Shown: positions 14,232-18,031, counted from the first letter of the stretch. The stretch: 18,031 nucleotides of DNA from an archaeon (GCA_043803745.1 JAZDJS010000027.1:1-18031); one strand, 5' to 3'. Notes: generated from the letters alone by a model not told the origin. Numbers and translations: made by a program.

Positions 14232-15158
14232 ATGATAGAATCGTTCTCCTTCGACAAAAGGACCGGGCTTGTCGTCCCGGCGAAAAGCCTTGCCAAGGCG
14301 GACTGGATACGCCTGGGGCTCCCAACTGTCGCGGAAATGGAGTTTGTTGAGGAGGAGTTCGGCATTCCCCTCAGCTTTGCAAAGGCGGCTCTTGACGAGG
14401 ACGAGCATCCGAGGATTGAAACCGAGAACGGGCTAACCCTGATTCTTGTGAAAGTTCCGAGGCCTGCGCCTGTCGAAATGGAATCCTCGACAATACCCCT
14501 CGCGTTCATACTTTCCAAGGACAAGGTTTTCACAGTCTCCCTTAGAAAGACAGGAATCTTCGACACTGTGCTCAAAAAAAGACCCTATCTCCTTGCAAAG
14601 AAAAAGGGGCTCGTGATAAAGGCGCTTTCGGTAATAGGAAAGGAGTTCAACAAGCGCCTCGACAGGATTGACAAGGAGGTCGACCGCCTTGAAAACGACG
14701 TGCGCTTTGCCCTGAAGAACAAGGAAGTGATCCGTCTCCTGAAAATCCAAAAGGAGCTGGTATATTTCAACAAGGCGCTAATCGCGAACAAGAAGATACT
14801 TGAGCGGATTGACGGGGGGCACGTTTTTTCGGTTGACAAGGCGGAAGACGAGATTCTGGAGGACGCGATAAGCGAAATCAACCAGGCCCTTGACGAGACC
14901 GCAATCTACAGCTCGATTCTCAGCAACACCATGGACGCCTATGTCTCGATAATCTCGAACAACTTGAACGAGGTTATGAAGCTCCTGACAATCGTGACGA
15001 TACTTATCTCGATACCCGCAACCTTCTTCAACTTCTTCGGGATGAACCTGCTTATTCCCCTGGCCAATTCCCCTGGCGGGGCGATGATGGTCCTCGCAAT
15101 TTCCTGCGCTCTTGCCCTTGCCTCCCTGGTCTACTTTAGGAAGCGGGGCTGGGTTTAA
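14232..15158 (+). CDS. corA: CorA-family Mg2+/Co2+ transporter, 308 aa
   Basis: ALDEDEHPRIE, SIISNNLNEVMKLLT, FFGMN signature, two C-terminal TMs. Start ATG 14232, with TATA-like TTTTTATT at 14200-14207. Confidence 0.95.
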   Translation: MIESFSFDKRTGLVVPAKSLAKADWIRLGLPTVAEMEFVEEEFGIPLSFAKAALDEDEHPRIETENGLTLILVKVPRPAPVEMESSTIPLAFILSKDKVFTVSLRKTGIFDTVLKKRPYLLAKKKGLVIKALSVIGKEFNKRLDRIDKEVDRLENDVRFALKNKEVIRLLKIQKELVYFNKALIANKKILERIDGGHVFSVDKAEDEILEDAISEINQALDETAIYSSILSNTMDAYVSIISNNLNEVMKLLTIVTILISIPATFFNFFGMNLLIPLANSPGGAMMVLAISCALALASLVYFRKRGWV

Positions 15159-15170
15159 AGGGGCGAGCAA

Positions 15171-15326
15171 GCCGACAAGACTGCGGAGATGAGCGGCGAG
15201 CTCTGGAACTGGGCCGATATTGTCTTCGTGTTTCCCCTCGCCTTGCTTGGGACGTCGTTGACGCTCCGGAGGAGATTCCTGTGCGGGAGTTAGCGGGCAT
15301 ATGTCCGCAAGAAGGGGCGTGAGGGG
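15171..15326 (+). pseudogene. Degraded relic of a CX5R phosphatase gene paralogous to 17006-17392
   Basis: Three collinear blocks match the intact gene (hand counts): 15172-15233 vs 17118-17179 (52/62), 15269-15307 vs 17180-17218 (30/39), 15306-15326 vs 17336-17356 (15/21). The 5' part with the CX5R motif is missing. Confidence 0.85.
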
Positions 15327-15367
15327 CCGGGCTTAACCTTAAGTCAGGGCGAGAGAATTAATCGATT

Positions 15368-15853
15368 TTATTCGAATATTGCGAAATTATCCTCATAACC
15401 GTTAGTATCGCCAATTGCCTTTACTCTGAACACCCGCATTTCACTATCTTTAACCGGCTTCTTGTGGTACGCAGTTAGCCAATGTTGGTGTTCCCATTTG
15501 CAATAGTTCGCCACCCTTCTGGCGGGAACGAAGAAAAGTCTATATGTCTTTGGCGATACTTTGAGGTCAGTATAAACGAAGCAGAAAATCAAACCGGTGT
15601 CGGGCGTTTCGTGTTTGACATTCAGCAGCCAGTGTAGATTTGCCCCATCAAACAAGGACTCGTTCTTTAGCGTTTTAGTGGTTTTGACTTCAACTTTGAA
15701 TTGCTTGCTATTTCTTGGATTATAGACTAGAATATCCACTCCTTTGGCGCGCCCCAGTGTAAGGGCCGCTTCATACCCTTCTAAGAACAATCGTGACATG
15801 GCATAGAATTCGCCAGCCATACTGACTGCATTATTGTCTAGTTTCGTGACCAT
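15368..15853 (-). CDS. PD-(D/E)XK nuclease-family protein, 161 aa
   Basis: MAGEFYAMSRL (helix E), GVDILV (D), KVEVKT (ExK). ATG 15853 preferred; 15886 possible. Confidence 0.8.
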   Translation of the reverse strand: MVTKLDNNAVSMAGEFYAMSRLFLEGYEAALTLGRAKGVDILVYNPRNSKQFKVEVKTTKTLKNESLFDGANLHWLLNVKHETPDTGLIFCFVYTDLKVSPKTYRLFFVPARRVANYCKWEHQHWLTAYHKKPVKDSEMRVFRVKAIGDTNGYEDNFAIFE

Positions 15854-15939
15854 AGATTTGACGACAATCGCGACAAATAAATACATTTGTGGCTAACCCC
15901 GCCCCTGGTCGCTAAAACCGGAGGGATAGATGCGCCAAT

Positions 15940-15955
15940 GAGCCCGTTAGGGCTC
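15940..15955 (-). terminator. Hairpin immediately after phosphatase 1 stop
   Basis: GAGCCC-GTTA-GGGCTC abuts the TGA at 15958-15956. A second imperfect hairpin lies at 15902-15925. No U-tract. Confidence 0.35.
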
Positions 15956-16285
15956 TCAAGGATAAATCGCAAACCGTCCCAGTCGTTTCAGAAGGAAGGG
16001 AATCAACTCAGGATCGTTTCTTTGAAAGTAACTCGGAACGTCCAGGATTTGCATTTTTCTCTTTGATATCCCTGGAAAGGTAATTAGAATTCTTTCTCTG
16101 TGCCAACCTTCCATTACAAAAACTCGGTCTGCCCAAGAAAGCAGCTCTCCGGAAAGGATTGTTTTTGCATGAGAATGAATTCCTGCCGATTTTGCCTCAA
16201 ATCGCTCGCTATTGGCGAAAAGCTCAGCTACTGCCGGGCTTCGATCTATATTACTAGAGCAAACAAATAAGAGGTGCTCTTTCAC
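15956..16285 (-). CDS. LMW-PTP/ArsC-fold CX5R phosphatase (COG4551-like) #1
   Basis: LLFVCSSNIDRS, AKSAGI, LLSWADRVFVME, ILDVP...DPEL. GTG start overlaps the upstream TGA (GTGA). Confidence 0.9.
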   Translation of the reverse strand: MKEHLLFVCSSNIDRSPAVAELFANSERFEAKSAGIHSHAKTILSGELLSWADRVFVMEGWHRERILITFPGISKRKMQILDVPSYFQRNDPELIPFLLKRLGRFAIYP

Positions 16286-16716
16286 TTTATTATCACAGTT
16301 ATTATCCCGTCAAGGAGTGGCTTAGTTGTGATTGCAATCGCCCGATATTTTGAAGTCTTGCTTGCTTTCAAGACGGCCTTTGTTGTTCTAGGATAAAGCA
16401 TTGCGTTGTCAAAAACCACAACCCTTTCCTTGCGTTTTGGTGCGTTTGTTTCCATCAACTCTGTTTTTTCAACAATTTCTGGAACGCCCGTAGGATCGTC
16501 CTCAATTAGACCCGCTTCAAACTCTTCGATTGTTCCGTTACACGTGGAATAGGTATACCACCGACTTTTATCGTTGTTTTCAAGAAGTTCGTAAGTTCTG
16601 GTTTTTCCTGAGCCATTTTCGCCTATTATCTGTATGGGGCCTTTGGTCGCTTCTAAAACATTGAATAATCCGTTCCAATCACCTGTCTTTACCACAAAAA
16701 CTCCTGCGCTTGCCAT
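16282..16716 (-). CDS. Minimal P-loop NTPase, 144 aa
   Basis: Walker A IQIIGENGSGKT, Walker B VVVFDNA, IAITTK strand. ATG 16716 preferred, with minus-strand ATTAAAA ~25 nt upstream. Confidence 0.75.
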   Translation of the reverse strand: MASAGVFVVKTGDWNGLFNVLEATKGPIQIIGENGSGKTRTYELLENNDKSRWYTYSTCNGTIEEFEAGLIEDDPTGVPEIVEKTELMETNAPKRKERVVVFDNAMLYPRTTKAVLKASKTSKYRAIAITTKPLLDGIITVIIK

Positions 16717-16760
16717 AGAAGGTATCAGGCCTCTGGAAGTTTTAATCAGGGCAGGAACAC

Positions 16761-16913
16761 TTGAAAGTAGGGAGCTCGGTTTGGCCCGGAAAGCAAAGAA
16801 AACGTATCGGATTAGTGAGACTGAAAATAGACTCCCTACGTCCATATGAGGAACTGCTTGACCTTGGCCGGGTAATTGCTCCGGGGTGGGGGTCCCTTAA
16901 ACCCTATAGATAG
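16761..16913 (+). CDS. Possible 50-aa small protein (not in ORF track)
   Basis: TTG 16761 to TAG 16913: MKVGSSVWPGKQRKRIGLVRLKIDSLRPYEELLDLGRVIAPGWGSLKPYR; AGGA just upstream. No recognised motif. Confidence 0.25.
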   Translation: MKVGSSVWPGKQRKRIGLVRLKIDSLRPYEELLDLGRVIAPGWGSLKPYR

Positions 16914-17005
16914 ATGACGGTACGGGGCGGCCTTACAGTCCCAACGTGCAATCCACTCGTTCTGAAAAACAAAATCAATATTTATTTGAAGCGCCGTTAT
17001 AATAA

Positions 17006-17392
17006 ATGCAAAAGATACTTTTTGTATGTAGCGAAAATGTTCGACGAAGCAAGACTGCCGAGGTCATATTTTCTCGCACGTATGAAACCCGGTCGGCAGG
17101 GCTGTTTTGCAAAAACACCGACAAAACCACTCAAATGAACGGCGATCTCTGGAATTGGGCCGATATTGTCTTTGTGTTTGAGGAAATTCATGTGAAGGAG
17201 TTGGAGAGCATATATCCTGACTCGTTTGCCAATAAGCTGGTCGTCAATCTCGAAATTCTGGATATGTATCGCTATATGGCGGATAATTTGGTCTATTCGC
17301 TGAAGCACAAGGTGCCGCGATGCCGGCCCTATCTTCGCAAAAAGAGGCTCAAGGGCGCAGTAGTCAGATGGAAAATGATAGGACACGTTTAG
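17006..17392 (+). CDS. LMW-PTP/ArsC-fold CX5R phosphatase (COG4551-like) #2 with basic C-terminal tail
   Basis: ILFVCSENVRRS, TRSAGL, WADIVFVFEE, VNLEILDMYRYM, tail PYLRKKRLKG. Confidence 0.9.
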   Translation: MQKILFVCSENVRRSKTAEVIFSRTYETRSAGLFCKNTDKTTQMNGDLWNWADIVFVFEEIHVKELESIYPDSFANKLVVNLEILDMYRYMADNLVYSLKHKVPRCRPYLRKKRLKGAVVRWKMIGHV

Positions 17393-18030
17393 TTTGGCTG
17401 AACGAGTGTTTGGTTCTTGTTTGTGTATTTAGTGTAAAGTTCGAATAATATTTCAAGACGCTCCAGATCTGTCTTTAGACTTTTTTTCGTGTAAAGTTTC
17501 TCAATCTCCCTATCAAGTTTTGTGTGCAAAGTTCTCAATGTTTTCGGCATTCTTAAAGGATCATATAACCCGGCATAAGTTTCTCCTTTGTCTAAATGAC
17601 TCTTTCTTTCAGCAAGCAATTCACCCACCAGCGTTTCAATTTTTTTCTTTGAGGTCGCGCTAGGTTCCGGCCAAGGAAAGGTGTTGTAAATGACATCATT
17701 CGAGTATCTGAATCGCCCTTCAAGTCGTCCACCTATTTGGCTCATCCAAGTCATATGCATTCTCGATGTAAGCACTCCAAATTGAAATACGCTCAAACCT
17801 TCTACCGTTGCACACGAATTGTTAGCGATTTCTCCCTTTTCCATAAACGCCATTGGGATGTATTCCCGTTTTTCTGAAGAAACTAAGGGTATCAACAAGT
17901 ATTTGCTTTTAGGCTGGCGTATCTCTCCAAAGAGATAAGGAGTCTGCGCTAGTTTCAGGGTTGCGCCACGTTTGCTTTTTTGTCTATGCTCTTTGACCTT
18001 GTTTATTCTTTCCAGTATAGCTGGTAGATT
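17389..18030 (-). CDS. MmeI-family type IIL restriction-modification enzyme, C-terminal TRD region (partial)
   Basis: Frame open from the window end: ...SKRGATLKLAQTPYLFGEIRQPKSKYLLIPLVSSEKREYIP...MHMTWM...GGRLEGRFRYS..IYNTFPWP...LYDPLRMP...ERLEILFELY. Confidence 0.93.
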   Translation of the reverse strand, partial: NLPAILERINKVKEHRQKSKRGATLKLAQTPYLFGEIRQPKSKYLLIPLVSSEKREYIPMAFMEKGEIANNSCATVEGLSVFQFGVLTSRMHMTWMSQIGGRLEGRFRYSNDVIYNTFPWPEPSATSKKKIETLVGELLAERKSHLDKGETYAGLYDPLRMPKTLRTLHTKLDREIEKLYTKKSLKTDLERLEILFELYTKYTNKNQTLVQPN

Positions 18031-18031
18031 T

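Follow-up and report, generated by a model that had tools for sequence, protein, structure and literature searches.

Genes beside an MmeI-type restriction-modification gene in an archaeal low-G+C island: probably a mosaic rather than one defence system

Is a compact group of genes beside a restriction-modification (R-M) gene one anti-phage system or a set of separate arrivals? The question is raised by an archaeal contig on which a nuclease, a minimal P-loop nucleoside triphosphatase (NTPase) and two small CX5R phosphatases, here called PTP1 and PTP2 after protein tyrosine phosphatase (PTP), lie next to an MmeI-family type IIG R-M gene. A preliminary description had proposed that they form a defence module in which phosphorylation or nucleotides gate the nuclease. 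The window, that is, the whole stretch of DNA analysed, is the complete contig C27 of 18,031 nucleotides (nt), taken from a source assembly of 1.23 Mb in 51 contigs that is estimated to be 90% complete, and the four genes of interest fall in its last 2.7 kb. If true, a nuclease gated by a cysteine phosphatase would be a novel kind of antiviral system for the DPANN archaea, about which little is known. What the evidence favours is an ordinary mosaic island, and we consider it somewhat probable that the genes are separate transcription units beside the R-M gene and not one four-gene system.

Component genes lack recurrent co-location

Twelve foreign loci of the nuclease family were found across 185,579 species genomes (in Pacearchaeota, Woesearchaeota, Nanoarchaeota, Planctomycetota, Chitinophagaceae and Endomicrobium), and for the phosphatase family 80 loci were retained from at least 506 relatives in metagenome contigs. 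At E<=0.1, with flanks of up to 6 kb for the nuclease loci (some of them short as contigs end) and up to 4 kb for the phosphatase loci, no PTP or NTPase match was found near the nuclease in any of the 12 loci, and no NTPase, nuclease or MmeI C-terminal (MmeI-C) match was found near the phosphatase in any of the 80. Additional weak matches in the nuclease loci were one to PTP2 at E 0.65 and one to MmeI-C at E 0.006 inside a topoisomerase open reading frame (ORF). The genes are likewise on separate contigs in two related genomes: the same-genus genome G001 has its NTPase homologue on contig C12 and its nuclease homologue on contig C10, and the same-family genome G003 has its NTPase homologue on contig C31 and a PTP gene on contig C20 beside pheT.

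The 141 immediate neighbours of the 80 phosphatase genes are mixed (HAD, AroM, ThuA, GNAT, epimerases, aldo-keto reductases, TIM-barrel proteins and others) and include four P-loop proteins (NTPase_I-T, DEAD helicase, CDC48 and AAA_15) and one NucS-like nuclease. Seven of these neighbours match PADLOC models at 1e-8, and two have the look of genuine defence genes, one a PDC-S11 gene and the other with an AriA/PtuA/GajA-like N-terminus. Each ORF of the cluster has homologues elsewhere and is thus no chance reading frame. PADLOC-DB 2.0, searched at E<=1, returned no family for PTP1, the NTPase or PTP2 and TmtA alone for the nuclease (E 0.016, 10.9 bits), which leaves no significant model for any of the four proteins.

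The component genes show no recurrent co-location, and a defence system in the form of a conserved four-gene module is not supported by these genomic comparisons. The phosphorylation- or nucleotide-gated nuclease proposed earlier finds no backing at any of these loci, and independent arrival of the genes, which the preliminary description had kept as its fallback, is the reading favoured by the evidence.

Gene content, composition and transcription units

The features of the island are as follows, with the evidence for each in brackets.

15172..15233, plus strand: remnant of a PTP2-like gene, about 25 codons, forming the left copy of a 62-nt repeat (DNA repeat, translation)
15368..15853, minus strand: predicted PD-(D/E)xK endonuclease, 161 amino acids (aa) from M12, within an ORF of 172 aa at 15368-15886 (homologues, model)
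15905..15955, minus strand: hairpin, U4 run and tatttattt box (sequence, fold energy)
15956..16285, minus strand: PTP1, short phosphatase resembling the low-molecular-weight PTPs (LMW-PTPs), 109 aa (loop C9-SSNID-R15-S16)
16282..16716, minus strand: minimal P-loop NTPase, 144 aa from its probable start M44, within an ORF of 187 aa at 16282-16845 (GENGSGKT, VVVFDNA)
17006..17392, plus strand: PTP2, short LMW-PTP-like phosphatase, 128 aa (loop C-SENVR-R-S, CSENVRRS); the right repeat copy lies within it at 17118-17179
17389..18031, minus strand: C-terminal 213 aa of an MmeI-family type IIG R-M protein, ending at the contig end (MmeI_TRD, MmeI_C, PADLOC)

The observation of the preliminary description is confirmed at the coordinates that it gave: the ORFs of all four genes, the Walker A motif, the E..D..ExK motif and the CX5R(S) loop of each phosphatase are present, and the two overlaps that it reported are borne out as well. 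Window positions 16282-16285 read tcac (GTGA on the minus strand), so that the GTG start of PTP1 overlaps the TGA stop of the NTPase gene by 4 nt and couples the two genes, and the stop of PTP2 (TAG, 17390-17392) shares 2 nt with the convergent stop of the MmeI-type gene (TAA, 17389-17391). All of this lies in DNA of low guanine-plus-cytosine (G+C) content beside the R-M gene, again as described, and this DNA has a foreign look. The G+C content drops along the window from about 0.53-0.56 to 0.42-0.46, and positions 15400-18031 have a value of 0.437, more than 4 standard deviations (sd) under the genome mean of 0.539 (sd 0.023, 1158 windows of 2 kb), a level of 0.45 or less being reached by 0.95% of these windows.

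The G+C content at third codon positions (GC3) averages 0.632 over the genome (sd 0.065). The NTPase (0.389), PTP1 (0.376) and MmeI-C (0.39) lie well under this mean, the nuclease reaches 0.491, and PTP2, at 0.555, comes nearer to it than its neighbours do; these values are noisy because the genes are short. The pattern fits a common origin of the NTPase and PTP1 genes, which the R-M gene may share, and separate histories of the nuclease and PTP2.

The nuclease had also been described as the last gene of a linked run from the NTPase through PTP1. Directly 3' of the PTP1 stop lies a hairpin, GAGCCC-UAAC-GGGCUC, followed by a U4 run (fold energy -19.3 kcal/mol, z -2.64, with 1 of 200 shuffles equally stable), and a tatttattt box is located about 22-30 nt upstream of the ATG of the nuclease, which begins about 100 nt downstream of PTP1. 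The two elements look like a terminator and a separate nuclease promoter, and because they lie between PTP1 and the nuclease, the latter is probably not on the NTPase-PTP1 transcript, which speaks against the linked run. TATA-like A/T boxes are also present about 20-30 nt before the ATGs of PTP2, the NTPase (M44) and CorA, and we infer three leaderless transcription units. A motif, TATTTATTTG, occurs at 15869-15883 and 16979-16993 on opposite strands, before the start codons of the nuclease and PTP2, and is possibly a shared promoter element.

A family of small nucleases with its own genomic company

Alignment with 13 homologues (155-173 aa, 43-56% identity, none with a Pfam domain) places the real start of the nuclease at M12 (position 15853) and gives a protein of 161 aa, in which E15, D40, E55 and K57, the residues of an E..D..ExK motif, are invariant or nearly so in the 14 sequences. 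The AlphaFold2 model (predicted local distance difference test, pLDDT, 87.2; predicted template modelling score, pTM, 0.84) has a helix at residues 7-24 that is followed by strands. A wide VIA-align search of 48,161 solved chains returned as its best match 2OST, the endonuclease I-Ssp6803I (Z 14.3, root-mean-square deviation 2.4 A, 124 of 148 residues), followed by the Hjc structures 2WCW (Z 9.5) and 1GEF (9.4) and the restriction enzyme NhoI (9.4), and the top 12 tabulated matches are all PD-(D/E)xK-type nucleases or relatives. The Atlas structure search agrees on a small PD-(D/E)xK fold, with PDDEXK_5 clusters among its entries. The protein thus carries the E..D..(D/E)xK motif on the alpha-beta-beta-beta-alpha-beta core by which this superfamily is recognised.

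Searches by sequence gave fainter signals. Pfam yielded sub-threshold NOV_C matches in 11 of the 14 family members (best E 0.0011) and a PDDEXK_5 (PF11645) match in one of them (E 0.011, under the cut-off), which leaves the family outside PDDEXK_5 by sequence, and the family profile met chance-level matches only among the PDB sequences (E 0.76) and did not retrieve 2OST. PHROGs gave weak matches to families of unknown function only (best 1.4e-6). No relatives were found in viral contigs (alignment A3), and tblastn against 72,556 plasmid and 50,697 phage records returned nothing at 1e-3. Homologues are present in 2 of 41 related genomes.

Defence-type genes lie within 4 kb of the nuclease homologue in half of the foreign loci (6/12), so that the expected proximity to defence genes held for the nuclease family, but not the expected co-localisation of the module (0/12 nuclease and 0/80 phosphatase loci). 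The genes concerned are AbiU/AIPR (L026), a type IIG R-M gene and a DrmC-like PLD gene (L030), SoFic/PDC-S04 and Csa3 (L031), a PDC-S41/Nhi-like Schlafen-type helicase (L032), a type II R-M pair (L033), and PDC-S02/YhcG with an integrase (L036). Four loci have no defence gene near the homologue (L027, L028, L029 and L034) and two have generic matches only (L035 and L037). Other surroundings include a tmRNA gene (L037), a tRNA gene (L035) and an integrase of the insertion-sequence type (L034); some homologues are wedged among housekeeping genes (DHS/GatB, exosome/Rpb6, or before L1/L10), and that of G001 on contig C10 sits between genes for a phosphoenolpyruvate-utilising protein and a thymidylate kinase. 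PADLOC matches occur among the immediate neighbours at 4 of 12 nuclease loci and 7 of 80 phosphatase loci (one-sided Fisher p 0.034), a comparison to be taken as a hint only, because the loci are few and related.

Owing to these neighbours (defence, tmRNA, tRNA and integrase loci), we regard the nuclease as an accessory-island gene in its own right. It would act alone, as a small, probably oligomeric, Mg2+-dependent PD-(D/E)xK DNA endonuclease, with E15, D40, E55 and K57 as its putative metal and catalytic residues. Presumably expressed from its own promoter, it belongs to a patchily distributed family carried in variable regions and defence regions, both in DPANN archaea and in several phyla of bacteria, and we read it as a putative solitary nuclease, either of defence type or selfish and site-specific.

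Two further observations were made at the foreign loci. A PDDEXK_1 (Cas4/RecB-like) gene overlaps the start of the nuclease homologue in three DPANN loci (L030:5364-6008, L031:5130-6011 and L033:5358-6002) and may form a conserved two-nuclease pair with it; in L030 a 1047-aa type IIG R-M gene comes directly after the pair. About 1 kb upstream of a Pacearchaeota homologue, an RT-16 RNA (L027:4840-4979, Rfam RF03019, 75 bits) lies within an 84-nt direct repeat pair.

Two members of a short LMW-PTP-like family

Both phosphatases score just under the Pfam cut-off of 23.2 bits for LMWPc (PF01451), PTP1 at 19.8 bits and PTP2 at 22.6 bits. PTP1 has 76 full-length relatives of about 105-130 aa (E down to 9.7e-25, 83-100% of PTP1 covered), which carry the source names 'predicted protein tyrosine phosphatase' or 'LMW PTP family protein' and many of which are precomputed as PF01451. 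PTP1 and PTP2 align end to end with this family, PTP1 at 35-49% identity and PTP2 at up to 43% (to P0007), and the full-length alignment takes in the short-family motifs LFVCS.N..RSPTAE, WAD, ME..H and DPEL. In a 31-sequence family alignment C9, S10, R15 and S16 are invariant, and the C-x5-R-(S/T) loop is present in both proteins. Position 85 of the same alignment is a nearly invariant Asp in the short family, and is Ser in PTP1 and Asp at the aligned site of PTP2; an Asp after the last strand is presumably the general-acid position of LMW-PTPs. To our knowledge, no member of the short family has been characterised. The literature searched gave no paper joining LMW-PTPs with anti-phage defence, and COG4551 appears in a table of a phosphatome survey.

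PTP1 and PTP2 share 38% identity over 89 aa, and because each is at least equally close to foreign members (49% and 43%), they are not the products of a recent duplication. No other LMWPc-like genes were found in the genome. PTP1 is thus placed in a widespread family of about 110 aa, in which the thiolate of Cys9 would attack a phosphate ester or similar group held by Arg15. PTP2 would be a further phosphatase of the short family, with a more native-like codon composition.

A lineage-restricted NTPase and its pairing with PTP1

Since homologues match the NTPase ORF only from residue 35-44 onwards, its real start is probably M44 (16716), which gives a protein of 144 aa with the Walker A motif GENGSGKT and the Walker B motif VVVFDNA. 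Walker B (hhhhD/E-N-A) is conserved, and the GKT triplet is retained in three of the four homologues that cover the site and degenerate in that of G001 (GGDLLSRK). The family is very small: a full HMMER pass over 1.84 billion representatives returned four proteins, namely the NTPase itself, two fragments and one 175-aa protein (3.4e-4), a word-based search of 5.8 billion proteins found the NTPase alone, and no relatives were found in viral contigs (alignment A1). Among 40 relatives of the source genome, homologues occur in G001 (40% identity) and G003 (45%) only, with a third, weak match in G014 inside a 1971-aa frame.

Pfam gave weak sub-threshold matches to AAA_22 (19.1 vs 27 bits) and AAA_16. 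The AlphaFold2 model (pLDDT 53.5) was too poor for searching by fold; that of the Atlas (pLDDT 0.66) reaches template modelling (TM) scores by query of 0.59-0.67 to the cores of the RFC large subunit, AAA_14, AAA_22 and NB-ARC. The NTPase thus looks like a minimal AAA+-like core without lid domain, in a tiny family almost confined to one archaeal lineage, and may be an ATP-binding domain that is made together with PTP1. Such a core, of the ASCE (additional strand, catalytic E) or AAA+ type, argues against a kinase, and the earlier idea of an end-healing kinase/phosphatase pair is weakened for this reason. The NTPase and PTP1 genes form a real local two-gene operon, as judged from their overlap; the pairing seems to have arisen in this genome.

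The surroundings of the two homologues differ. In G001 (L121:7915-8367, contig C12) the gene lies in a low-G+C stretch (0.38-0.45) adjoined by small unannotated genes, with a C5 cytosine DNA methylase gene 3.3 kb away. In G003 (L005:1286-1749, contig C31) the gene falls into two frames (115 and 114 aa) that overlap, the cause being a frameshift or an error of sequencing; the DNA around it is core-like and high in G+C, and a MarC gene is its neighbour.

The properties of these proteins bear on the proposal that the NTPase, PTP1 and the nuclease, with or without PTP2, make up one lineage-specific defence system, with a PD-(D/E)xK effector under the control of a cysteine phosphatase and of a sensor that binds ATP. 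Tight clustering on one strand in a low-G+C island by a type IIG R-M gene, the 4-nt overlap of NTPase and PTP1, the frequent proximity of the nuclease family to defence genes, and the low-G+C setting of the G001 NTPase homologue near a DNA methylase are all in its favour. The proposal has to contend, however, with genes that are not co-localised in 12 nuclease loci, 80 phosphatase loci or two related genomes and that have no significant PADLOC match, with a nuclease set apart by a hairpin, a promoter-like box and a different GC3, with a PTP1 that lacks the conserved Asp85, and with a P-loop that is degenerate in the nearest homologue. We therefore consider one system improbable, and retain the mosaic of separate units.

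A phosphatase remnant and the origin of the island

A whole-genome search revealed a 62-nt direct repeat at 15172-15233 and 17118-17179 (84% identical, E 8.4e-12). The left copy starts 14 nt past the CorA stop and encodes ADKTAEMSGELWNWADIVFVF, with 67% identity to residues 36-59 of PTP2; a six-frame search of 14900-15450 yielded no more of the remnant than these 25 codons (profile positions 34-58). It lies in a high-G+C spacer (0.589) and differs from PTP2 partly at third positions towards G/C. The pair brackets a 1.9-kb block with no recombinase gene within. The left copy is 135 nt outside the low-G+C block, and because joining the two copies restores no intact gene, a simple attachment (att) site model does not fit. 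We take the left copy as the probable remnant of a resident phosphatase gene that was destroyed on arrival of the island or on rearrangement.

The repeat and the fold of the nuclease together raise the prospect of a free-standing homing-type endonuclease: break repair would have copied the 1.9-kb block between the repeats (the nuclease, PTP1 and NTPase genes with the 5' end of PTP2) into a resident phosphatase gene as one unit, leaving the duplicated fragment as a scar. In favour are I-Ssp6803I as the closest structure, a family scattered over DPANN archaea, Planctomycetota, Chitinophagaceae and Endomicrobium, with some loci amid housekeeping genes, and a phosphatase fragment that brackets the block with no recombinase in sight. 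Yet no convincing bracketing direct repeat of at least 20 nt was found around the nuclease in the 12 foreign loci, and at the Rfam gathering score no intron, group I included, was found in the window or the 12 loci, the matches there being a tmRNA, tRNAs, a 5S rRNA and an RT-16 RNA. The offset of the left repeat from the low-G+C block, the failure of joined copies to give an intact gene, and the single PDDEXK_5 match among 14 members also count against a homing event, and with half of the foreign loci being of defence type a restriction-like role fits equally. We hold homing to be unlikely. A combined version, in which the NTPase-PTP1 bicistron and the I-Ssp6803I-like nuclease are one lineage-restricted cassette (a defence system whose nuclease is gated by a phosphatase, or a selfish homing unit that carries passengers) that entered the resident phosphatase gene as a block with the 62-nt repeat marking its ends, strikes us as a long shot of much the same order.

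The low G+C content also invites the suspicion that the contig end is an assembly or binning chimera from another organism, given an assembly of the metagenome type in 51 contigs and a deviation of more than 4 sd from the mean right at a contig end. Against this, NTPase homologues occur only in the same genus and family, PTP2, within the low-G+C DNA, has its match in a phosphatase remnant on the high-G+C side, and contig C15 ends in a further low-G+C stretch that also bears a type IIG gene, which indicates that such islands recur in the genome. A chimera is thus very improbable, less likely than either one system or homing. Because the NTPase family is confined to the same archaeal family and the phosphatase remnant lies in the high-G+C part, we conclude that the island belongs to this lineage. 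This small archaeal genome would carry, where contig C27 ends, an accessory island low in G+C and 2.7 kb or more in length, at whose border the resident phosphatase copy was reduced to the 62-nt remnant.

The rest of the contig also encodes an archaeal-type histone, dCTP deaminase and CorA; no recombinase or tRNA gene was found on it. In G001 CorA alone is shared in synteny, and the genes downstream there are DtxR, FeoA and FeoB.

The R-M neighbour

The C-terminal 213 aa of the MmeI-type gene match MmeI_TRD (3.5e-42), MmeI_C (2.9e-19) and PADLOC REase_MTase_IIG (2.9e-69, model positions 709-911). No counterpart of the missing nuclease, helicase-spacer and methylase regions turned up in the assembly, where the only other matches lie on contigs C15 and C1 and appear to belong to a different gene. 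These matches end a second low-G+C stretch (0.37-0.46) at 85000-90016 of contig C15 of the source genome, G000 (L123, L124). There the type IIG-like gene covers the model as far as position 307 or so where C15 ends, and C1 (1-944) opens with the continuation from about 308; C15 and C1 therefore probably abut, in a genome that would hold two type IIG genes.

Weighing the mosaic reading

Several points weigh against the mosaic that we favour. Four genes inside 2 kb, in one compositionally deviant block by an R-M gene, have the classic look of a defence island, and the GC3 of the NTPase and PTP1 genes matches that of the MmeI gene, so that at least three genes may have come together. The NTPase family is so rare, with four matches, that non-linkage for this gene rests on two relatives of 40-45% identity, one of them frameshifted, and many of the metagenome contigs are 1-2 kb long, with incomplete flanks. 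The promoters and the terminator are predicted from sequence only, and the association of the nuclease with defence is drawn from 12 related loci, without a proper background control.

Comparison with known systems

Among known systems, the MmeI-family type IIG enzymes are matched here in the target-recognition and C-terminal domains, the contig holding the C-terminus alone. With the YwlE/LMW-PTP family, PTP1, PTP2 and their relatives have in common the C-x5-R-S loop, the WAD motif and the E and H residues, and the best match of PTP1 to a solved sequence is the YwlE arginine phosphatase 4PIC (5.1e-6); PTP1 and PTP2 are about 40 aa shorter than the canonical LMW-PTPs. The NTPase has the Walker A and B motifs of the AAA+/STAND cores (RFC, AAA_14, AAA_22, NB-ARC) but is only 144 aa long and without the lid domain. 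Wzc/Wzb-type pairs of P-loop tyrosine kinase and LMW-PTP, considered together with McsB/YwlE, are known cases in which a P-loop protein is encoded with an LMW-PTP-type phosphatase. The NTPase, however, resembles AAA+ cores and not MinD-like bacterial tyrosine kinases, the tyrosine cluster and a family match being absent, and the P-loop/PTP pairing seen here is not conserved in other loci.

The nuclease shares with the Hjc resolvases (2WCW, 1GEF, 1OB8 and 1HH1) the same minimal PD-(D/E)xK fold, at Z 7.1-9.5, clearly below 2OST, and what we take to be a similar spacing of the catalytic residues. It differs from them in an additional conserved C-terminal part, HK.PVKD..MR.F, and in a distribution that is patchy in archaea and not universal. 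The likeness to I-Ssp6803I (2OST; PDDEXK_5, PF11645) lies in the fold, the small single domain and the E..D..ExK arrangement, at only 12% sequence identity to the model; I-Ssp6803I is intron-encoded and tetrameric, whereas the gene described here is free-standing, with no group I intron detected. Judged by its model, the nuclease adds a further case to an established type of enzyme, as a predicted small PD-(D/E)xK endonuclease with an I-Ssp6803I/Hjc-like fold, and it represents an unnamed family with a homing-endonuclease-like fold that recurs by defence genes in archaea and bacteria.

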